Notes: generated by a model from the sequence alone, not told the origin. A stretch of 57,368 bases of DNA from an uncultured Gammaproteobacteria bacterium (GCA_964414145.1 CAYPVH010000002.1:1-57368), one strand, 5' to 3'. Shown: positions 17,469 through 52,082, counted from the stretch's first letter. Made by a program: numbers and translations.

Positions 17469-17831
17469 ATGAAAGTACAAAGTTTACAAAAAAAAACCAA
17501 AAAACAAAGGCAGAGAACTACAAGAAGGGTTCGTGCACCAATTTTAGCTGGTAAAAATCGACCCCGTTTGTCGGTTTATCGATCTCTTAATCATATTTAT
17601 GCACAAATAATTGATGATACTTCAAGAAAAACACTAGTGTCATTTTCAGATTTAAAAATGACCGAGAAAAAAAGTAAAATCGATTCAGCTAAAGAGGTGG
17701 GAAAAAAGATTGCAGAACTGGCACTAAAGAAAAAAATTAGCACTGTTGTTTTTGATCGTTCTTGGTATCGATTTCATGGTAGAGTTAAAGCATTAGCCGA
17801 ATCGGCAAGAATTGCAGGTTTAAAATTTTAA
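17469..17831 (+). CDS. rplR: 50S ribosomal protein L18
   Basis: [33 protein letters not shown]. Confidence 0.98.
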
Positions 17832-17843
17832 TAAAACAAAATA

Positions 17844-18290
17844 ATGGAAGAAGTTAAGGAATTACAAGAAAAAGTATTACATATTAGACGGGTTTCTCGG
17901 AAAGTACCCGGTGGTAATTATGTATCGTTTTCAGCCCTTGTGGCTGTTGGAGATATGCAGGGCGGTTTGGGTATTGGTCTTGCCAAAGCTCTTGAAGTAC
18001 CAAAAGCTATCGAAAAAGCGCTTCGAAAAGCCAAAAAGAGGATGGTAAAAATTGACCTTAAAGGAACAACTATTCCTTACGACACGGTTATTAAATACAA
18101 TGCTTCCAAAGTACTTCTTAAACCGGCTGCCGAAGGAACCGGTTTAAAAGTTGGTAGTGTAATTAGGCCATTAATGGAAATTGCCGGAGTAAAAGATCTA
18201 TCCGGTAAAATCCTTGGCTCTAATAATAAGATTAACCTAACATACGCAATATTTAAGGTTTTTAAAGAGTTTAAAGCCAGGCAGAAATGA
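17844..18290 (+). CDS. rpsE: 30S ribosomal protein S5
   Basis: [32 protein letters not shown]. Confidence 0.97.
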
Positions 18291-18736
18291 CAAAACTAAA
18301 TCAACTTACAAGTATTACAGAAAAAAGGAAAAAGCGAATTGGTAGGGGTTGGTCCTCAGGCGCTGGTAAGTATAGTGGCCGTGGTATAAAAGGTCAGAAA
18401 AGCCGGGGAAAGATTAAATCATTCTTTGAAGGAGGTCAATCGCCGCTTTCAACAAAATTACCAATGCTTAGAGGTAAAGGGAAAAATAAATCAATAAAAG
18501 ACAAGGTTGTTGTAATTAACGTTTCTCAACTTGAAGCGCGAGATCAAATAAAGAAAGGCGCTACAATCAACGAAGCATCACTAATTAAAAGTGGTTTAAT
18601 AAAAAAGAGCCAAACAAAGAGAGAAATTAAACTTCTCGGTATGGGTAAACTAAGTAAAAAGTTAATAATTGAAATTAAAGCGTCAACAAGCGCAATCAAA
18701 AAAGTTAAAGCAGCTGACGGTGAATATAAATATTAA
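18287..18736 (+). CDS. rplO: 50S ribosomal protein L15
   Basis: [28 protein letters not shown]; ATGA overlap with rpsE. Confidence 0.98.
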
Positions 18737-20015
18737 ATCTTTTATCAAAGATATTTGGGAAAACAGAGCGCTTCGAAAAAAGCTTATCTTTACCTTAGCT
18801 GTCCTTGTTGTCTTCAGACTCTTTTCATACGTTACTATTCCAACAATCGATATAGAAAAATTAAGGAGCTTTTTCGCTTCGAACCAATTTTTAATATTAT
18901 TGGATATTTTTAGTGGTGGTACCTTGTTAAATTTTTCTATTCTAGCTACTGGTCTAAATCCATATATTAATGCCTCTATTGCTATTCAACTGTTTACTAT
19001 GATTTATCCCCCTCTTGAAGCTCTTTCTAAAGAAGGTGAGTACGGGCGGAATAAAATAAACCAGTATACGCGTATGCTAACCTTACCTATTGCTTTTTTT
19101 CAAGCGATTGGTATGTATTTCTTCTTAAAAAATCAAGCAATAATTGGAGCACTCAGCTTTATGGAATTAATTGTTTTTGCTGTTTCACTAACTGCAGGTA
19201 CTTTTATATTGGTTTGGTTGGGTGAATTAATTTCGGAATTTGGTATTGGTAACGGAATTTCATTTATCATTCTTGCCGGTATTGTAGGAAGGATTCCTGT
19301 AGTTTTGGTACAGTCATTTAATTTACTCAGTGCCGAAAACGTAGTTCCGGCACTAACCTTAGTTGCCATATCGTTTGCCGTGATTATTTTGGTGGTAGTA
19401 TTAAACGAAGCTAAACGAAAAATTCCCGTTTATTACGCTAAGCGTGTTAGAGGGGGCAAGATGTATGGTGGCGCAACAAACTATTTACCAATCAAACTAA
19501 GTCAAGCAGGGGTAATACCAATTATTTTTGCTGTTTCTTTTGTGCTTTTTCCACAATTAATTGGTAATTTTCTGGCAAGTTCTGCAAATTCAACTTTGGC
19601 CGGGATTGGTGAGTTATTTGTTACAGTTTTTAATGCCAATGGCATTATTTATAATTTAATTTACTTTTTATTGGTTATTGTGTTTACTTTTTTCTATTCA
19701 TCTGTAATCTTTAATCCTCAAAAAATATCTGAAGAAGTTCAAAAGCATGGTGGTTTTATTCCAGGAATTAGACCGGGTCAAAAAACCAAGGAATTTTTAC
19801 AAACAACACTTTACAGATTAACCTTTGTTGGTGCGGTATTTTTGGGCTTAATTGCGGTTTTGCCCAATATTCTTTCTGCCTTTACCGGGTTTAAATCACT
19901 TTTTTTTGGTGGCACCAGTATACTTATTGTAGTTTCGGTAATTCTCGAAACTTATAAAGTAATACAGGCACAGTTAGCGGTTCAAGGCTATGATAAGTTG
20001 CAAACCAGTTTATGA
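18720..20015 (+). CDS. secY: Preprotein translocase subunit SecY
   Basis: [49 protein letters not shown]; GTG 18720 is the likelier start than 18669. Confidence 0.98.
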
Positions 20016-21142
20016 AAATAGTATTATTCGGAATTCCCGGCGCCGGAAAGTCTACTCAGGGTAATTTATTGTCTAAGCAATTCCATATTCCGTATTTGTC
20101 AACTGGGCATATTTTTAGAAACATTGCACAGGAAAAAACCAAATGGGCAAGATTTGTTAAAGAAACCATGGCGGCAGGCTTACTAATTCCTGACAAAGAA
20201 ACAATTCAAATTGTTAATGAATACCTGTCTAGAAAAGAGTATCAAAAAGGATATATTTTAGATGGATTTCCCAGGAATATTTACCAGGCAAAAAAATTTA
20301 CAAATAATATTGATAATGTCATTTACCTAAAAGTATCAGATAAAGAATCATTATGGCGGATTTCGGGTAGAGTAGATGAGGGGCGTGCCGACGACACAGT
20401 CCATGCTGTTAAGAAAAGGATCGATATTTTTCATAAACACACCGAACCTGTGTTAGATTATTACCGTAAAAAAGACTTACTTAAAGAAATTGACGGCACC
20501 AAAACAATTAAACAAGTTAACGAACTAATATTAAAATCAATCGGAAAAACGATTGGTAAAAACGGGGTTACTAGCTGGTTTAAGAGAAGAAAAACAATAT
20601 TAGCGATAGTTGGTTTACCGGGTGCTGGTAAAAGTGCTGCTGCCAATTACTTTAAAGCCAAGGGCTTTCCTGTTATTAGATTGGGGCAGATTACCGACGA
20701 CATTATCAAAGAAAAAGGGCTAAAATTCACAGTTGAGAATGAAAAAAAAGTCAGGGAAGGAATTAGGCAAAAGGAAGGAATGGCAGCTTACATGGTGGCG
20801 AATGTACCTAAAATCAAGAAAACACTGGAAAATAATAAAGTAGTCGTGATTGATGGACTGCGATCATATGAGGAATATTTATTTGCCAAAAAATCTTTTA
20901 AAAATGTATTTCTACTTGCAATTGTTGCCGACAAAAAATTAAGACACAAAAGAATTAAATCCAGACAAGTTAGAGCTAATGTAAGAGGAGAAAAGAGAGA
21001 TGTTCAAGAGGTGCTAAATTTAAACATGGGCCCAACGATTGCCCTAGCCGATAAGATTGTAATTAACAACAGTACCATTTTCGAACTTGAAAGCAAACTA
21101 GAAGAGGCATACAGACAAGTTTACTATGGAACTCCTTATTAA
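20012..21142 (+). CDS. adk: Adenylate kinase (short LID) fused to a second P-loop NMP/dephospho-CoA-kinase-like domain
   Basis: Domain 1: GIPGAGKST, STGHIFR, LDGFPR, GRADD. Domain 2: IVGLPGAGKS, VIDGLRS, ADKIVINN. Confidence 0.9.
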   Translation: MKIVLFGIPGAGKSTQGNLLSKQFHIPYLSTGHIFRNIAQEKTKWARFVKETMAAGLLIPDKETIQIVNEYLSRKEYQKGYILDGFPRNIYQAKKFTNNIDNVIYLKVSDKESLWRISGRVDEGRADDTVHAVKKRIDIFHKHTEPVLDYYRKKDLLKEIDGTKTIKQVNELILKSIGKTIGKNGVTSWFKRRKTILAIVGLPGAGKSAAANYFKAKGFPVIRLGQITDDIIKEKGLKFTVENEKKVREGIRQKEGMAAYMVANVPKIKKTLENNKVVVIDGLRSYEEYLFAKKSFKNVFLLAIVADKKLRHKRIKSRQVRANVRGEKRDVQEVLNLNMGPTIALADKIVINNSTIFELESKLEEAYRQVYYGTPY

Positions 21143-40228: not shown

Positions 40229-40258
40229 CAACCCCCGAGGTTACAACCTCGGGGGTTG
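40229..40258. repeat. GC-rich palindrome (REP-like), copy 2
   Basis: C-AACCCCCGAGGT-TACA-ACCTCGGGGGTT-G; same arms as 33141-33166 in swapped order. Confidence 0.85.
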
Positions 40259-40480
40259 ATAAACAATTTTTTCTAGATGTAGGTTTTGAACTAAGTGGAA
40301 GTAGGAGTAAAAAGATTATTTAATTTGGCGGTTTAATTGAAAATGGAATGGTTCGATTAAGACCCAACGGGCGGCAATCATGGTACGACGTTGGAAATTA
40401 TCTGAACGAGTTAAGATAAATATTGGGAAGGTTTCTTTAAGAGAGCAGAAGAAAAACTTTTTAATTTTTGTATCTTGTTT

Positions 40481-41044
40481 AACCCAAGAGCTGCTAAAAC
40501 CACTATGTTGACTTGAAGGGAAGGAGCTTGTTATTCACAAGTCTTTACCCTTCACTGGCCTTTCGGCCAGCTCTCCATTATTATTTCCCATGGAGAAAGT
40601 CTTTTTTCTATTTACAGCGAGTCCAAGCGACGACGAATTCCGGCAGGTACTCTGCCGGCGAGTCGTCGTAGTCAGCGCAGTGGACGCAACACGCCTCGTC
40701 TGATGGGTCGTTGGGGTCCGGTGTGGACCAGGCGTCGCAATATTGTTCATCACTGCATCTTACACAGCATCCACTGGCCGTCGTCAAGAGAATGACGGCC
40801 AGCGTTACTAGTACAACAACAACTCTCACGACTTTCTTCTTGTTCACCATTTCCTCCCATGAAAAAAAACCAAACATGCCAGTTCTCGCTCCGCTGGTTC
40901 GGAGGGGCCTTACCCCGTTGTGGTTTATCACCTCCTTTGTGATAAATTTGGGCATTAAGCCCGCAATAAATAGAATAATATATTCCACTCACTGCGGGCT
41001 TACCCAAAAATATTTAGGGAAAGTGTTAATACAGCTCTTGGGTT
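40481..41044. mobile_element. Cassette A: GC-rich segment bounded by 13-bp inverted repeats
   Basis: AACCCAAGAGCTG (40481-40493) / CAGCTCTTGGGTT (41032-41044); hand count 38/60 GC at 40621-40680 vs 19/60 at 11821-11880; mobility is inferred. Confidence 0.55.
40608..40850 (-). CDS. Small exported 8-Cys protein, possible lipoprotein
   Basis: MVNKKKVVRVVVVLVTLAVILLTTASG-CCVRC...CCVHC...C; GGAGG SD upstream; start ATG 40850 or GTG 40847 rather than 40988. Confidence 0.65.
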   Translation of the reverse strand: MVNKKKVVRVVVVLVTLAVILLTTASGCCVRCSDEQYCDAWSTPDPNDPSDEACCVHCADYDDSPAEYLPEFVVAWTRCK

Positions 41045-41206
41045 GTTAATGAGCAACTATTGAATTAATTAAATACATTAAAGCAGCTTCTGCTTTAAAT
41101 AGTTTAATAAACCAATAATAACCTATAATATAATACATTACCAAACCAAGAAGTTCAAAACCAAACAGAATATAATATATTGTTTATTGTGGGGCTCTAT
41201 AGAATG

Positions 41207-41280
41207 CGGGATTGACGGGACTCGAACCCGCGACCTTCCGCGTGACAGGCGGACGCTCTAACCAACTGAGCTACAACCCC
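41207..41280 (-). tRNA. tRNA-Asp(GTC)
   Basis: GGGGTTG-TA-GCTCAGTTGGTTAGAGC-G-TCCGC-CTGTCAC-GCGGA-AGGTC-GCGGG-TTCGAGT-CCCGT-CAATCCC-G; CCA not encoded. Confidence 0.97.
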
Positions 41281-41625
41281 AATTTGTATAAGTACATTAT
41301 TTTAGCATATTCTAGCCATTTTGAAAGTAAAAAAGAAGAGTACTGATTATTTTTACAAAGTATTATAAATTTAGTAGCTAAAGCTTAATACAACTATGGT
41401 CTATGTGGCTTGTTTAGAAAATTATTTTTACTCTATCTTTGAGTTTTTTAGGGGAAGCGTAAGGTTCTTGTAGTAAACAATAAAACGTCTTAGGTAGCAT
41501 TGTTTTGGTGTATAATTTGACTGCTATTAATAATTATGTCAGACTACAATCTATTCTATGATAAAACTGTATGAATGATTAGTTTTAATTTGTAGATTGC
41601 ATTCTGCACCATTGAACTTTTAATA

Positions 41626-42474
41626 ATGGTTAGAAACATACCATCAAAGGCAAAAATAAAATATTTTCGTCACTTAGTTAACTCTTTATTTTTTAAAGCA
41701 AAAAAGAATGACCCGGCAGAATATATTTGTGCTATTAAATATTTTTTGGATATGAATAATCTACATTTAAAAACACCATCCAAGGAATTGGCAGATACTA
41801 TTGATCAAGTTTTAAGTTCACTTCCTCACATTGTGGATGATAAGGAATTGTGTATCAAAATTTTGTCATATGTATATTGTCAAATATACGAATCAAATAA
41901 CTGGTTGTCTCTTGTTTATAACTTACTTCTAATTAACGACTCTGAATGTGTCCAAATTAACCCTTTTAAGAAATCATTAGTAGAAAATAAAAGAGTATCT
42001 ACATTAGAGAAAGTTAGAGAAATATTAGATGAATCAAAAAGCACAAGTATGGTGAAAGTGAAATTAATAAGTCATAGTATCAATCAAGTATCAAACCCAA
42101 ACATAGGTATTCTTACAAAACTAAAAAAAATAAAAAATTTATCTGAAAGACTAAATATAAAGATTGGGTCATATATTTGGGATTTGTATAATAATGATTT
42201 CCGAAATGATTTCACTCACTCGCAATATGTGATTTATAAAAATGAATTAAATTTAGTTAAATCTGTTCGACATATAAATTTACTAAGTCTCATAGATCTA
42301 ACTGTTACTGTAATGAATATCTATATTCATATCATGAATAGAGCTTTTACTGAAATTGAAAGAATTAAAAGTAAAGGATCAGTAAAATTCAAAGGAAAAT
42401 GTGGTTATGTAAAAGTTTCTTTTGAAAATGATTACATAAAGCATGAATCAAAAATGAACTGTGCAAATTTTTAA
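41626..42474 (+). CDS. Putative HEPN-domain protein (RNase-like)
   Basis: Helical 282 aa with R-N-D-F-T-H (Rx4H) in the C-terminal third; very AT-rich (12/60 GC at 42121-42180). Confidence 0.55.
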   Translation: MVRNIPSKAKIKYFRHLVNSLFFKAKKNDPAEYICAIKYFLDMNNLHLKTPSKELADTIDQVLSSLPHIVDDKELCIKILSYVYCQIYESNNWLSLVYNLLLINDSECVQINPFKKSLVENKRVSTLEKVREILDESKSTSMVKVKLISHSINQVSNPNIGILTKLKKIKNLSERLNIKIGSYIWDLYNNDFRNDFTHSQYVIYKNELNLVKSVRHINLLSLIDLTVTVMNIYIHIMNRAFTEIERIKSKGSVKFKGKCGYVKVSFENDYIKHESKMNCANF

Positions 42475-42539
42475 GTTATGCAGAAATATCAGAATAAAAT
42501 GTTTAATGCTGTATCATGATTGCCACATTTTTGCCTGCT

Positions 42540-43067
42540 TTAAAGTTCAAGTTTTCTAATAAACTTATTTAGTTTTAATAGAGACATTTCATAAATAAAA
42601 AGGTTATGGATTTGTTTATCGTTATCAATTGTTATTATTGTCTTTCTATCGAGTAATGTTAAATTAAAATCCTTATCACTAGTTATTAAGTATGACTTAC
42701 CTATAAACTTATAAAGTGCGCAGTAAAGAAGAAAATCAGGATAGCTTGCATTTTTAGATGAAATTTGAACTACAGGCATTATTCGTTTAAAATCATTTAA
42801 ATGTTTTTCAATCGGATATGTCCTGATATACTCATTATAAAATTTAAGTCTTTTTTGCTGATTCACCAAAGAATCTGTTCTTGAAAATTCAAATAGGACT
42901 GAGGGAATACAAGTTAGTTCAATGCCTAAAGGTTTTAACTTACTGACTACCTCAAAAAATAATGTTGTGTTTTCAATAAAAGTAATTAGGGCATTATTAT
43001 CAATGAATAAGAAAGTATTTCTTCTAAATGCAAGAAAGTCTTCTTTTTGGTAATAAATCCTTTTCAT
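42540..43067 (-). CDS. PIN-domain (VapC-like) ribonuclease
   Basis: Acidic tetrad pattern: FIDNNAL, VLFEF, SYPDFLL, LITSDKDF. Confidence 0.8.
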   Translation of the reverse strand: MKRIYYQKEDFLAFRRNTFLFIDNNALITFIENTTLFFEVVSKLKPLGIELTCIPSVLFEFSRTDSLVNQQKRLKFYNEYIRTYPIEKHLNDFKRIMPVVQISSKNASYPDFLLYCALYKFIGKSYLITSDKDFNLTLLDRKTIITIDNDKQIHNLFIYEMSLLKLNKFIRKLEL

Positions 43068-43209
43068 TTCCGTTATTTGTTAACGTTTGTTTAACCATTT
43101 TTACATCTCTAATGAATTTAATTTTATTGATATCCTTAAGATTTGTTCTAGGTGATTTTTGCTCGAATGTAATTTCTTTTTCAATGTCTTTTAGTGTTAC
43201 TTTTGTCAT
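43024..43209 (-). CDS. Small basic protein upstream of PIN gene, candidate antitoxin
   Basis: 61 aa, overlaps PIN start by 44 nt, same strand. Confidence 0.45.
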   Translation of the reverse strand: MTKVTLKDIEKEITFEQKSPRTNLKDINKIKFIRDVKMVKQTLTNNGNEKDLLPKRRLSCI

Positions 43210-43275
43210 CTATTTCATTATATATTATTTAATAATTATTTAATATAAATTTGTTAATACTATAATATTACATTA

Positions 43276-44190
43276 GTGAATAAGAAATCTAGATTAAAAA
43301 TAAGTAATACATTAGTAGCTACTGTATCCCTATCTTTCTGGCTCTTAACACTAGTGGTGTTTTATATTACACTGATGTATTCAAATAAAACCCATAAAGC
43401 AAGTATTTATTCAGATTCTGTTTCTAATCTTTTTTTGATTATTCTGATAGTAGGATTTATTGCTTATCTATTTCTTATGGTATCAGTAATAAGTATGTTA
43501 ATAGGTAAAACAAAAAAGATTATATACAAAGCATTAATCTTTATTGGTACTTTTATTTTTTTTGTTTCTTTTCCAATACTTTTTGTTATTAGTATTGCTT
43601 ATTTTTCAAGTACTTTGAAACCTGCTGTAGACAGGGAATTAGCATTTGTGATAACACCAACTATACAAGAAATAGAACCTTCATTAGTTAATAATATTAG
43701 TCCCTCAGCTATACCTATATCTGACAGTATACATGAAGCTGATAATGGTGAATGGGGAGTTGCGAAGCAGGTAGACGAAATTGGGTGGTCTATGAAAGTT
43801 GGAATGGATAATAGAATTGGTACACCTCAGGAAATATATGAGGCGTTAAACGCATATCGTCAAAAGCATGGTGTTGGTCAACTGTCTTGGGATAATAACT
43901 TATCTGCGTTTGCCCAAAGTAGAGCTGATTATTTTAATAATATTGGAACAACAGATAAGCATGAAGGTTTTAATAAATTTTCAAACAATCCGGACAACTT
44001 TACAAATATAGGTTTTAGAAGTCTTGGTGAAAATTCATCTTACGGATATAAACTGCTAGGTGTACATATAATTGAATGGGTATTTGCAGGCGATGAGCCA
44101 CATAACACAAATCAATTAAATCCCAAATGGCAATATGTAGGCATTGGAGTTAATGGTTTGGGTATTGATATAATTTTTGGTGCCAAGTAA
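43276..44190 (+). CDS. Membrane protein (3 TM) with C-terminal CAP/SCP domain
   Basis: ALNAYRQKHG..LSWD..L..FAQSRA, GEN, W...H..NQLNPKWQYVGIG. Confidence 0.9.
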   Translation: MNKKSRLKISNTLVATVSLSFWLLTLVVFYITLMYSNKTHKASIYSDSVSNLFLIILIVGFIAYLFLMVSVISMLIGKTKKIIYKALIFIGTFIFFVSFPILFVISIAYFSSTLKPAVDRELAFVITPTIQEIEPSLVNNISPSAIPISDSIHEADNGEWGVAKQVDEIGWSMKVGMDNRIGTPQEIYEALNAYRQKHGVGQLSWDNNLSAFAQSRADYFNNIGTTDKHEGFNKFSNNPDNFTNIGFRSLGENSSYGYKLLGVHIIEWVFAGDEPHNTNQLNPKWQYVGIGVNGLGIDIIFGAK

Positions 44191-44249
44191 GTCTTTTAAT
44201 AATCATATCTTAATTCGGTTACTGTATTATTTTTACTGGATTATTTGCA

Positions 44250-44283
44250 GACACCAAAGAGGACTTTGGTGTCTTTTTCTTTT
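44250..44283 (+). terminator. Intrinsic terminator-like hairpin that also contains the left IR of cassette B
   Basis: GACACCAAAG-AGGA-CTTTGGTGTC then TTTTTCTTTT. Confidence 0.75.
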
Positions 44284-44950
44284 CATGTTTCTTTTCTCCT
44301 TTTCTACTGCCGGCTCATCACCGGCACCGGTTCGTCGAGCAAGTGCAAGAGAACCCCCCATCCGTTTGGGGAGCTCTCGTTGGGGTAGATCTCGACGAAG
44401 CCGATGAAGGCATCATGCCCGCAGATTTTGCGGACCACAGCGCCCTCGTTCTCGACGAAACCGACTCCTCGGACGGATACTTCCATATCCGTGGAGTCGA
44501 AGGCGTCAAGTGCGAGAAAAAGGGTGTTTCGATTCCCCGTATCCTCGCAGACGCCGCCGTCCAGGTGGTACTGCCCATCCCAAGAGAGGATATAAGACGT
44601 GCCCCAATGGAGCTCGTCGATCCTCTCTGGCATCTCCAGTTCTCGCTCTTGCGAGAGTTCGACAAGGCTGATTCCCAGGACAAGGAGCGCAAGTAGTATA
44701 CCTGCGCCTGTTATCAATCTCCATGGATATTTCATTTTACCCTCCGGATTTTGATGTTGGCACCTAACCTTCCTCTACTCAAGGAGCTGGCCGGTTTGGG
44801 CCAGTTCTTTGCCTTTTTAGGGGCAGAGAAACAGGAGAGTATTTTCTCTCCAGGCTCGAGGAGGCACCTATCTAGCCACTAGCTTTTATTGCTAACAAAT
44901 AAATAGGTGCCTCCTCGATTATTAAAAAAAAGACACTAGTCCTCTTTGGT
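44253..44950. mobile_element. Cassette B: GC-rich segment bounded by inverted repeats
   Basis: ACCAAAGAGGACT-ttg-GTGTCTTTTT (44253-44278) vs AAAAAGACAC-t-AGTCCTCTTTGGT (44927-44950); 34/60 GC at 44341-44400; mobility is inferred. Confidence 0.55.
44304..44735 (-). CDS. Signal-anchored acidic beta-rich hypothetical protein
   Basis: MKYPWR + 19-aa TM; SD GGAGG 5 nt before ATG; two Cys; preferred over the overlapping alternative frames. Confidence 0.7.
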   Translation of the reverse strand: MKYPWRLITGAGILLALLVLGISLVELSQERELEMPERIDELHWGTSYILSWDGQYHLDGGVCEDTGNRNTLFLALDAFDSTDMEVSVRGVGFVENEGAVVRKICGHDAFIGFVEIYPNESSPNGWGVLLHLLDEPVPVMSRQ

Positions 44951-44963
44951 TTTAAAGAGCTAA

Positions 44964-45012
44964 TTTACCTAACTTGTTTACCAGCAGCAAATGCTGGTAA
45001 TTTTTAGGTAAA
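44964..45012. terminator. Compound hairpin just outside cassette B
   Basis: TTACCAGCA-GCAAA-TGCTGGTAA (44978-45000) extended by TTTACCTA/TAGGTAAA. Confidence 0.55.
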
Positions 45013-45061
45013 TAATATCCTATATAATGCAATTTTTAACTAACTTTATATAATACTTAAT

Positions 45062-50296: not shown

Positions 50297-51187
50297 ATGT
50301 ATAAAGCTATAAGTCAAAACAAAGTTAAATCTTATTTAATTTTGGTTTTTTTCTTTATTTTTTTAAGTTTTGTTTTGTTTGTTTTGGGTAGGGCAATGGG
50401 CTATTCGGGGCCTTCACTTTTCCTTTTTGCTTTTTTAATTAGTTTATTTAGTAGTTTTTTCAGCTATTATTTTTCCGACAAAATTGTATTAGCTTTGCAT
50501 AGCGCAAAGCCGGCAAATAGGGAAGAGCACTATAACTTTTATACCGTAGCTGAAAACTTGGCAATCGGTGCCGGTATGCCCAAACCCAGGCTGTATGTTA
50601 TAAACGACCAGTCTCCCAACGCATTTGCAACGGGCAGAAACCCAAAGAACGCTATTATTGTGGCAACAACCGGTTTATTAAACTTATTGGATCGGCGAGA
50701 GCTTGAAGGCGTGGTAGCACACGAACTTTCGCATATTAAAAACTACGATATCTTATTAATGACCATTGCTTCGGTTTTGGTTGGTTTTGTGGTTTACTTA
50801 ACCGACTTTTTTATGCGTTCTATTTGGTTTTCGCGCCGCGATAATGACCGAAAGGGCAGTGGGGTAACAATGATTATTGCAATCGCGGCGGCAGTTTTGT
50901 CGCCAATTGTGGCTACGCTATTGCAGTTGGCGCTTTCCAGAAAAAGAGAGTATTTGGCAGACGCCTCTGGTGCTTATTTAACCCGATACCCACAGGCACT
51001 GGCTTCGGCTTTAGAAAAAATTTCTAGTCAACCTACACCCCTAAAAAGCGCTTCAAATGCAACTGCTCATATGTTTATCGAAAACCCATTTAAAGCAGAT
51101 GTAAAAAAGCAAGTTTCTTGGTACGCCAAATTATTCAGCACTCATCCCCCGGTTCAAGAACGAATCCAAAAACTTAGAGCAATGTGA
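50297..51187 (+). CDS. htpX: Zn metalloprotease HtpX (M48)
   Basis: PNAFATG, AHELSH, SRKREYLAD, FSTHPPVQERI. Confidence 0.97.
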   Translation: MYKAISQNKVKSYLILVFFFIFLSFVLFVLGRAMGYSGPSLFLFAFLISLFSSFFSYYFSDKIVLALHSAKPANREEHYNFYTVAENLAIGAGMPKPRLYVINDQSPNAFATGRNPKNAIIVATTGLLNLLDRRELEGVVAHELSHIKNYDILLMTIASVLVGFVVYLTDFFMRSIWFSRRDNDRKGSGVTMIIAIAAAVLSPIVATLLQLALSRKREYLADASGAYLTRYPQALASALEKISSQPTPLKSASNATAHMFIENPFKADVKKQVSWYAKLFSTHPPVQERIQKLRAM

Positions 51188-51380: not shown

Positions 51381-52082
51381 ATGGCAAGAAGAAGTAGGCA
51401 AGATAACCAAAACCGAATAATTTTGTACTTGGTATTATTCCTTGCTTTACTGTTTTTGTTTTTCCGGTTTGGCTTGCAGATATTTATAGATACAGCATTT
51501 TATTTAACACAAGGCCGCCAAAGCGTGGCTATAAACAGTAAACAGGCAGAAAGTTCGAAAGTGGCAATTGTTACAGACCCAATTTTAGAAAGCTTACCAG
51601 ACGCAACCAACGAAGCTACTTTGCAAGTGCGGGGCCGTGCAAACCCCGAAAATAAAGTTACACTTTACCAAAATAGCGCCTATATAGATTCGATTAATAC
51701 AGACTACGACGGCAATTTTGAATTCGAAGTTACGCTAGAGGAAAATATCAATAAAATCTATATAGAAGCAACAGATACATACAGCAACAACAGTCGAAAA
51801 TCTAAAGTTCAAGAAATTCTTTTTCTAAACAAAGAGCCAACTTTAGAAATATCGAACATAGAAGATAATAAAAAATATTACAATTCCCAGGTAAATATTG
51901 AGGGCAAAACCGATAAAGAGGTGTTTATAAGAGTAAATCAAATTCCGGTTGTGGTACGGGCAGATGGCGGCTTTAATTATTCATTAAATCTAAAACCTGG
52001 CGAAAACAAGCTAACAATCGAAGCCAAAGATCAGGCAGGTAATGCTATCGAGAAATCTTATACTTTAATTTTTGTTGAGTAG
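51381..52082 (+). CDS. Membrane-anchored protein with two bacterial Ig-like domains
   Basis: TM then VRGRANP...F.FEVTL.E.INKI.IEATD and IEGKTD...F.YSLNL.PGENKL.IEAKD.AGN. Confidence 0.85.
   Translation: MARRSRQDNQNRIILYLVLFLALLFLFFRFGLQIFIDTAFYLTQGRQSVAINSKQAESSKVAIVTDPILESLPDATNEATLQVRGRANPENKVTLYQNSAYIDSINTDYDGNFEFEVTLEENINKIYIEATDTYSNNSRKSKVQEILFLNKEPTLEISNIEDNKKYYNSQVNIEGKTDKEVFIRVNQIPVVVRADGGFNYSLNLKPGENKLTIEAKDQAGNAIEKSYTLIFVE

Follow-up and report, generated by a model that had tools for sequence, protein, structure and literature searches.

The DNA analyzed here, a stretch of 57,368 nucleotides from a bacterium deposited as an uncultured member of the Gammaproteobacteria (GCA_964414145.1 CAYPVH010000002.1:1-57368; this whole stretch is called the window below), contains two short GC-rich units, A and B, each of which consists of a single gene for a small exported protein between the two arms of an inverted repeat. 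The window is a segment of a bacterial chromosome with an average GC content of 34% and carries a ribosomal-protein operon at about 10.4-26 kb. The genes for L18, S5 and L15 are contiguous (17469-18736), those for S5 and L15 overlap and no L30 gene lies between them, an arrangement which would fit a host resembling the candidate phyla radiation (CPR/Patescibacteria). Strong GC islands occur in the window only at about 40533-40927 and 44235-44894, and the repeats of A and B sit on their edges. A preliminary description of this DNA had delineated both units with their repeats, genes and hairpins, and all of these are indeed present (Table 1). It had also put the units at 57-63% GC against a background of about 32%; they are GC-rich, but the measured GC content of the coding sequences is 54% for A and 56% for B, with peaks of 60-61% in 150-nt intervals, against 34% for the window.

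The genes of both units are foreign to the host. Their GC content at third codon positions (GC3) is 0.63 for A and 0.69 for B, whereas 63 host genes have a GC3 of 0.28 ± 0.046 with a maximum of 0.37, and both are preceded by GGAGG, while 60 of the 63 host genes have no Shine-Dalgarno-like motif (GGAG, GAGG, AGGA or AAGG) within 25 nt upstream. Host upstream regions are A/T-rich. The rarity of GGAGG, already remarked upon in the preliminary description, is borne out by a count of 16 sites on the two strands of the window, six of which are inside A or B; among the listed window genes, a GGAGG Shine-Dalgarno site is carried by the two foreign genes only. The abrupt GC steps, together with genes that have no or nearly no homologues, could also arise if GC-rich fragments of another organism had been spliced into the contig during assembly. 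This explanation was rejected, since 14 independently assembled contigs from other samples (JGI and Logan) are collinear with the window at 99.9-100% identity and possess the same junctions, which are thus real; furthermore, an NCBI genome and other Logan assemblies have the architecture of B as well. The probability of a chimera is practically negligible.

With regard to function, neither cargo protein matched Pfam, PHROGs or PDB sequences. No homologue of the A protein was detected in protein searches. The predicted structure of the B protein (predicted local distance difference test, pLDDT, of 75) has no fold match in the PDB, and an exhaustive search of 5.8 billion proteins, both profile-free and with profiles, yielded only three relatives, with 31-38% identity; the profile search found no member of the family beyond these four. 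Two of the relatives, L005 (NCBI GCA_054921575.1, about 41% GC) and L022 (Logan, about 43% GC), have the B-type gene in gene contexts that are unrelated to each other and to the window.

Table 1 Features of units A and B, with positions in the window, listed for each unit in the direction of its gene
Feature	Position	Strand	Remarks
Unit A	40481-41044		one minus-strand gene
A, AT-rich promoter-like motif of the -10 type, ATTATAGGTTATTATT	41114-41129	-	common to B and L005
A, small upstream hairpin TTAAAGCAG-AAG-CTGCTTTAA	41078-41098	-	counterpart of B 44978-45000
A, conserved block GCTCATTAAC	41045-41054	-	directly upstream of the 5′ arm, outside the repeat
A, 5′ repeat arm	41032-41044	-	sense strand AACCCAAGAGCTG; plus strand CAGCTCTTGGGTT
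A, long leader hairpin	40956-41002	-	AT-rich loop
A, GGAGG Shine-Dalgarno site	40853-40857	-
A, gene for an 80-aa exported Cys-rich acidic peptide	40608-40850	-	GC3 0.63; signal peptide, eight Cys
A, structured 3′ untranslated region	40510-40601	-	three-way junction; z = -4.3
A, hairpin GAGCTGGCC-GAAA-GGCCAG	40554-40573	-	within the junction of the 3′ untranslated region
A, 3′ repeat arm	40481-40493	-	plus strand AACCCAAGAGCTG; partner of CAGCTCTTGGGTT at 41032-41044
Unit B	44253-44950		one minus-strand gene
B, promoter-like site TTAAAA-16-TATTAT	45011-45039	-	with conserved motif TATAGGATATTAT
B, small upstream hairpin	44978-45000	-	covaries with the L005 and L022 counterparts
B, conserved block GCTCTTTAAA	44951-44960	-	outside the repeat; CUCUUU complementary to AAAGAG in the 5′ arm
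B, 5′ arm	44925-44950, core 44938-44950	-	local hairpin AAAGAGGAC-loop-GUCUUUU, then U-run; sense-strand G·U
B, long leader hairpin	44856-44918	-	CTCCTCGAGC arm invariant in three family members
B, conserved hairpin CTGGCC-CAAACC-GGCCAG, then CTCC	44784-44805	-
B, GGAGG Shine-Dalgarno site	44741-44745	-	kept in L005 and L022
B, gene for a 143-aa protein	44304-44735	-	N-terminal hydrophobic helix and all-beta domain; GC3 0.69; four-member family
B, A-run and 3′ hairpin GACACCAAAG-TCCT-CTTTGGTGTC	44249-44278	-	contains the 3′ arm, 44253-44265

The non-coding ends of B are far better conserved than its protein. The core of the repeat, a perfect 13-bp pair in the window (ACCAAAGAGGACT / AGTCCTCTTTGGT) that extends to 26 nt at 81%, is identical at 13 of 13 positions in L005 and at 11 of 13 in L022. 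Besides the GGAGG site, both loci keep the blocks of the leader, i.e., the long hairpin ending in CTCCTCGAGC and the GGCC...GGCCAGCTC hairpin, as well as the A-run and the 3′ hairpin GRCAYCAAAG-TCCT-CTTTGGTGTC. Because this bracket is conserved to such an extent as compared to the protein, it should be a functional element. The fourth locus of the family, L021, has no structured leader and retains only the 3′ hairpin of the non-coding parts; at 540-600 of this locus, just upstream of the start, there is a segment AAAGAAGACTAG which differs by one mismatch from the 5′-arm core AAAGAGGACTAG and may be a remnant of the arm. The homologues in L005 and L022 have GC3 values (0.50 and 0.44) near those of their own hosts, and these hosts do use Shine-Dalgarno sites. 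Since the copy in the window is a compositional outlier while these two copies match their hosts, the comparison points to a recent acquisition of B by the host from a GC-richer, still unsampled donor.

A further GC-rich single-gene unit is present in L005 at 885-1825. Its gene, at 910-1674 on the minus strand, has 57% GC, as compared to about 41% for the genome, and encodes a 254-aa protein without a family match. The leader of the unit has a hairpin with an AT-rich loop, and 17 complementary pairs connect the leader to the region of the stop codon (CGTCTCCCTATGAGCTACTT / AAGTAGCTCACATCAGGAGACG), overlapping the stop codon; a separate, strong and proper terminator follows. The arms are unrelated in sequence to those of A and B. 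That the same layout occurs with different arms suggests that the recurring feature is an architecture rather than a single recognition sequence.

The repeat of A is likewise a perfect 13-bp pair (AACCCAAGAGCTG / CAGCTCTTGGGTT), but the weight of such repeats should not be overestimated. At a spacing of 150-2500 nt, a Markov model predicts about 9 perfect 13-bp inverted repeats for the window, which has about 15, so that in this AT-rich sequence a repeat by itself is weak evidence. The pairs of A and B derive their weight from their position at the edges of the GC islands, from the end motif that they share, and from the recurrence of the B pair in two other genomes. The end motif, TTAA-N0-4-CCMAAGAG, is found three times in the window against 0.17 expected, in each case at one of the four ends of A and B, and the outer part of the arms, AACCMAAGAG, is common to both units. 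Strictly outside the repeat, the alignment of A to B is not significant alone (z = 1.5); that of A to L005 gives z = 3.2. A and B share the end motif and probably also the module 5′ of the arm. The notion of a cassette family, advanced in the preliminary description, is confirmed for B, with its different gene contexts, and is suggestive for A, where kinship is seen in the end motif and the probable 5′ module. What had been called a shared hairpin, GAGCTGGCC...GGCCAGT, is found on opposite strands in A and B and comes down to a single 10-mer match, of which roughly one is expected by chance as estimated from the size of the comparison. It was thus discarded as proof of kinship, even though the hairpin is kept within the B family, and the proposed flipping of the cargo relative to it falls with the same 10-mer.

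The repeats do not bound the conserved unit, since conservation continues past the 5′ arm. A block GYTCWTTAA precedes this arm in A, B, L005 and L022, so that about 10 nt upstream of the arm are conserved, and between B and L005 the similarity reaches about 90 nt upstream (blastn E = 0.008; local alignment z = 6.6), where both have a promoter-like motif, TATAGGATAKTATTTA, as well as a covarying small hairpin at a distance of about 55-90 nt. Unit A has a counterpart of the motif and a similar small hairpin (Table 1). On the other side, 4-5 nt past the 3′ arm are still conserved, within the hairpin, and downstream of this hairpin there is no homology between the loci.

These borders bear directly on the possibility that A and B are non-autonomous transposable cassettes. 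Mobile insertion cassettes (MIC), such as MIC231 of Bacillus cereus, and miniature inverted-repeat transposable elements (MITE), which may carry passenger genes, resemble A and B in being small, in lacking a transposase, in having imperfect inverted repeats on both sides of one passenger gene, and in their foreign composition. In that case, the imperfect repeats of 26-30 bp would bind a transposase encoded elsewhere in the genome or the community. The units are foreign and B-type units occur in three unrelated gene contexts, the arms combine a perfect core with imperfect flanks as do the ends of insertion sequences, and the outer motif TTAA-N-CCMAAGAG common to A and B exceeds expectation as described above. 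Moreover, if the ends of A are taken to be ACC...GGT, the unit is flanked by TGTTTA and TGTTAA, a direct near-repeat with 5 of 6 positions matching. However, no target-site duplication was found for B in the window, in L005 or in L022, and inverted repeats of MIC and MITE are terminal, whereas the conserved sequence here continues outside the 5′ arm for 10-90 nt and outside the 3′ arm for 4-5 nt. Transposase, integrase or recombinase domains are absent from about 45 open reading frames scanned in the window, in agreement with the preliminary description, and no matching insertion sequence was found. Each type of repeat is present in one copy in the window. The search for further copies of the repeats, and for other family members by DNA pattern, gave in IMG/VR, the GTDB species genomes and the JGI metagenomes only chance-level matches without a partner arm, in unrelated and mostly GC-rich coding DNA; an apparent paired match in three loci (L007, L009 and L010) turned out to be located inside phage genes. 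Near-invariant arms around a cargo with 31-38% identity would be hard to maintain for a single-copy non-autonomous element, and the hairpins formed by the arms are strand-specific at the RNA level. Taken together, we regard transposition as unlikely.

The same repeats might instead delimit invertible gene switches. In fimS, the cwpV switch and the invertible promoters of Bacteroides, a DNA segment is flipped between inverted repeats. A recombinase acting in trans could flip A or B and thereby uncouple the gene from the promoter-like module outside the repeat, so that a secreted or surface protein would be phase-variable (ON/OFF). Repeats of 13-26 bp at 550-700 bp distance are typical of invertible segments, a promoter-like module outside the repeat is what such a design needs, the arm motif common to A and B could be the site of a single recombinase, and the cargo is exported. 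Unlike in known switches, however, the segment comprises a whole gene with its leader, no recombinase is encoded in the window, and the arms are embedded in strand-specific RNA hairpins. Contigs crossing the junctions (six at the right end of B, two at its left end, five at the left and three at the right end of A) contain no empty or inverted allele, and L005/L006 and L022/L023 have the same single orientation as the window contigs, a point which counts weakly against a switch, as consensus assemblies hide minority alleles; the missing empty site also speaks against transposition. An invertible switch seems decidedly improbable to us. With repeats that are not terminal, and with neither a target-site duplication, a second copy, a recombinase, nor an empty or inverted allele in the material described, the original proposal that one recombinase moves or flips the cassettes found no support.

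Other routes of gene acquisition were considered as well. Integron cassettes are also compositionally foreign single-gene units with an imperfect palindromic element, but in A and B the repeats are 550-700 bp apart, as compared to a site of 57-141 bp, and there is no array or integrase. An integron origin was rejected because no attC site is present at the 3′ end: A has GTTTAAC on the left, its partner GTTAATG does not conform to GTTRRRY, and the RYYYAAC / GTTRRRY cores are unpaired. The leader hairpins of A and B, furthermore, are perfect stems 5′ of the gene. Integration of an island at tRNA-Asp was rejected since a repeat of the tRNA 3′ end is found nowhere in the window. Phage morons, which are autonomous promoter-gene-terminator units with deviating GC content, are similar to A and B in that a self-contained single gene has its own promoter-like site and hairpins and a composition unlike its surroundings. 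Unlike morons, A and B are not located in a recognizable prophage: the proteins of the units and their neighbors have no PHROGs matches, the flanking genes tested encode ordinary cellular Pfam domains or match no family, with none matching a phage family, and collections of phages and plasmids gave no match at the DNA or protein level. The conserved structured leader of about 260-270 nt and the complementarity of the 5′ and 3′ ends set the units apart as well; morons are known for neither.

The arms themselves have properties that would be meaningful in RNA. In the 5′ arm of the B family, the stem of the local hairpin AAAGAGGAC-loop-GUCUUUU is conserved with loops of 4, 4 and 9 nt, and it includes two G·U pairs that are possible on the sense strand only. 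The 3′ hairpin also has sense-only G·U pairs (two in L005, one in L021). Its UCCU loop is not required by the local stem; it is nevertheless conserved, and its sequence is complementary to the 5′ arm. The 5′-3′ duplex predicted by cofolding, at -32 to -40 kcal/mol, is more stable than the two local hairpins together, which reach -21 to -27 kcal/mol. The design of the duplex is kept: a 13-bp helix is followed by an internal loop and by an inner helix of 8-10 pairs in hand registration, or 9-13 by cofolding, in which one compensatory change (G-C to A-U) and one wobble change occur. Folding of whole transcripts predicts a panhandle of 14 pairs for A, 28 for B, 22 for L005 and 30 for L022, with most pair probabilities above 0.8, and it does so for the third unit of L005 as well. 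The non-coding parts are more structured than usual: the leaders of B and A have z-scores of -8.1 and -5.7, and the 3′ untranslated region of A has one of -4.3. The analysis thus establishes conservation of a non-coding architecture, hairpins of the sense strand and a predicted pairing of the ends; the latter two point to a role of the arms at the RNA level. No known RNA family or ribozyme was matched in Rfam 15, where only tRNAs reach the gathering score, the best match below it is FsrA (26.6 bits against a cutoff of 80), and there is only noise at E ≤ 5. The junction in the 3′ untranslated region of A has a GAAA loop, but it was dismissed as a hammerhead since the core motifs of this ribozyme are absent.

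Hairpins at both ends of a gene could simply act as insulating terminators without any long-range function. The 5′ hairpin with its U-run would block incoming transcription from upstream, the 3′ hairpin, with a T-run on the other strand, would stop convergent transcription, and the inverted repeat would exist only because a hairpin was duplicated. B, L005 and L022 have a U-run after the 5′ hairpin, all four loci of the B family have an A-run in front of the 3′ hairpin, and on the plus strand the 3′ hairpin of B scores as a terminator of the CAP-domain gene at 43276-44190. However, A has no terminator-like hairpins in its arms, and in the third unit of L005 the 17-pair complementarity overlaps the stop codon while a separate, proper terminator comes after it. 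Loops and unpaired flanks of terminators should also drift, yet the UCCU loop and the 5′-arm ACC have kept their complementarity in the different lineages. Insulation as the sole function is therefore quite improbable in our view. Two hairpins in the leader region of B (44780-44811 and 44978-45000) also score as intrinsic terminators of the plus strand; conservation of their T-runs does not extend to L005 or L022.

According to the explanation that we favor, tentatively and at somewhat less than even probability, A and B are self-contained transcription units that were acquired by horizontal transfer, and their repeat acts in the RNA as a stem that closes the 5′ and 3′ ends. Both would have been acquired separately, as foreign single-gene units with one common layout, in which an AT-rich promoter-like module is followed by a structured leader of about 260-270 nt, GGAGG, a GC-rich gene for a small exported protein and a structured 3′ end. 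What appears in the DNA as a terminal inverted repeat would be one segment of the leader and one segment of the 3′ end that are mutually complementary. In the mRNA, these arms may pair to a panhandle with a perfect core of 13 bp, or 14-30 pairs when the inner helix is included, in competition with a local hairpin at each end. The stem would govern the processing or stability of the mRNA ends, either as a substrate of an RNase III-type enzyme or by shielding the ends from exonucleases. We infer both the pairing of the arms in the cell and its effect from structure predictions.

Several observations weigh against this explanation. Covariation is minimal, with three sequences and one compensatory pair, and it would equally preserve a repeat in the DNA. 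When the 3′ arm is deleted in silico, the ribosome-binding site is predicted to be as accessible as before, and gating of this site in the manner of hok was rejected on this ground. The presence of both arms on one RNA is itself predicted, the promoter and the start being pattern matches only, and promoter-like matches are no more common in the window than in shuffled sequence. The stem of A, with only 14 pairs, is short for RNase III. For base-pairing alone, the outer part of the arm, AACCMAAGAG, need not be the same in A and B; its presence in both would be explained by a common DNA-binding protein or by common descent, and this end motif is the strongest point in favor of a role in recognition by a protein or at the DNA level. 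Finally, transfer of the units between genomes is not accounted for by pairing in RNA, nor is it by any of the other explanations.

The closest functional analogue, at the level of analogy, is the mRNA of hok/Sok systems, in which a tac/fbi stem connects the 5′ and 3′ ends and the 5′ end forms a metastable hairpin (PMC9841398). In A and B, the leader is likewise predicted to pair over a long distance with the 3′ end of the full-length mRNA, the 5′ element has alternative partners downstream, in the local hairpin, and upstream, and the encoded protein is small and has a hydrophobic N-terminus. Unlike in hok, there is no conserved gene for an antisense RNA and no predicted release of the ribosome-binding site, the proteins have 80 and 143 aa with exported domains instead of being toxic peptides of about 50 aa, and a sequence relationship is absent. 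The stems that bracket rRNAs and phage T7 mRNAs are double-stranded over 20 bp or more and are cleaved by RNase III. They are comparable in that flanking sequences of a functional RNA pair, over 22-30 pairs in the B family, but the stem predicted here brackets a single mRNA and has only 14 pairs in A.

Some features of the surrounding DNA may be mentioned. The whole region from 40.1 to 45.4 kb adjoins tRNA-Asp and looks like a variable zone. Between A and B, the stretch 41300-43600 has a low GC content of 22-28%, against the 34% average, and its genes have no family matches; they include the gene for a 282-aa protein and, at 42540-43209 on the minus strand, an overlapping pair for proteins of 61 and 175 aa in a toxin-antitoxin-like arrangement. 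To the left of A, 220 nt without a convincing open reading frame (40260-40480) separate the terminator of a 209-aa gene (40229-40258) from the 3′ arm. In this non-coding part, 40395-40427 forms a 33-nt direct repeat of 82% identity with 42136-42168 inside the 282-aa gene. The idea that A had been inserted into a paralogue of that gene was dropped when tblastn gave no gene remnants on either side. Farther away, another perfect 13-bp inverted repeat, TTCGGTTTTGGTT at 50770-50782 and 51405-51417, brackets the end of an M48 peptidase gene, a mild GC bump (50815-51012) and tRNA-Thr, and is probably due to chance. The adenylate kinase gene at 20012-21142 encodes 376 aa, about double the usual length, with a faint dephospho-CoA-kinase-like match in the C-terminal half (residues 196-234).

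Beyond the two units, it is conceivable, if rather unlikely, that A, B and possibly the third unit of L005 represent an undescribed, horizontally moving single-gene expression cassette of small-genome, CPR-like bacteria, i.e., a portable platform on which varied genes for exported proteins travel between genomes of very different GC content. Such a platform would consist of the promoter module, the structured leader, the strong Shine-Dalgarno site and complementary ends that are recognized in single-stranded form or as RNA structure. The architecture is rare and unusual, and the B family, with four lineages among 5.8 billion proteins, is very rare, which limits the generality and strength of the conclusions. 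The conserved bracket would represent either a novel RNA architecture for regulation or processing, or a site that a mobilizing enzyme recognizes. With the platform, the cargo could be expressed even where the host's own genes make no use of Shine-Dalgarno sites. If our reading of A and B is right, the units show how a bacterium with a tiny, AT-rich genome whose genes dispense with such sites can acquire, and possibly express, foreign genes that encode secreted proteins, the genes arriving sealed with their own promoter, leader, ribosome-binding site and end structure.

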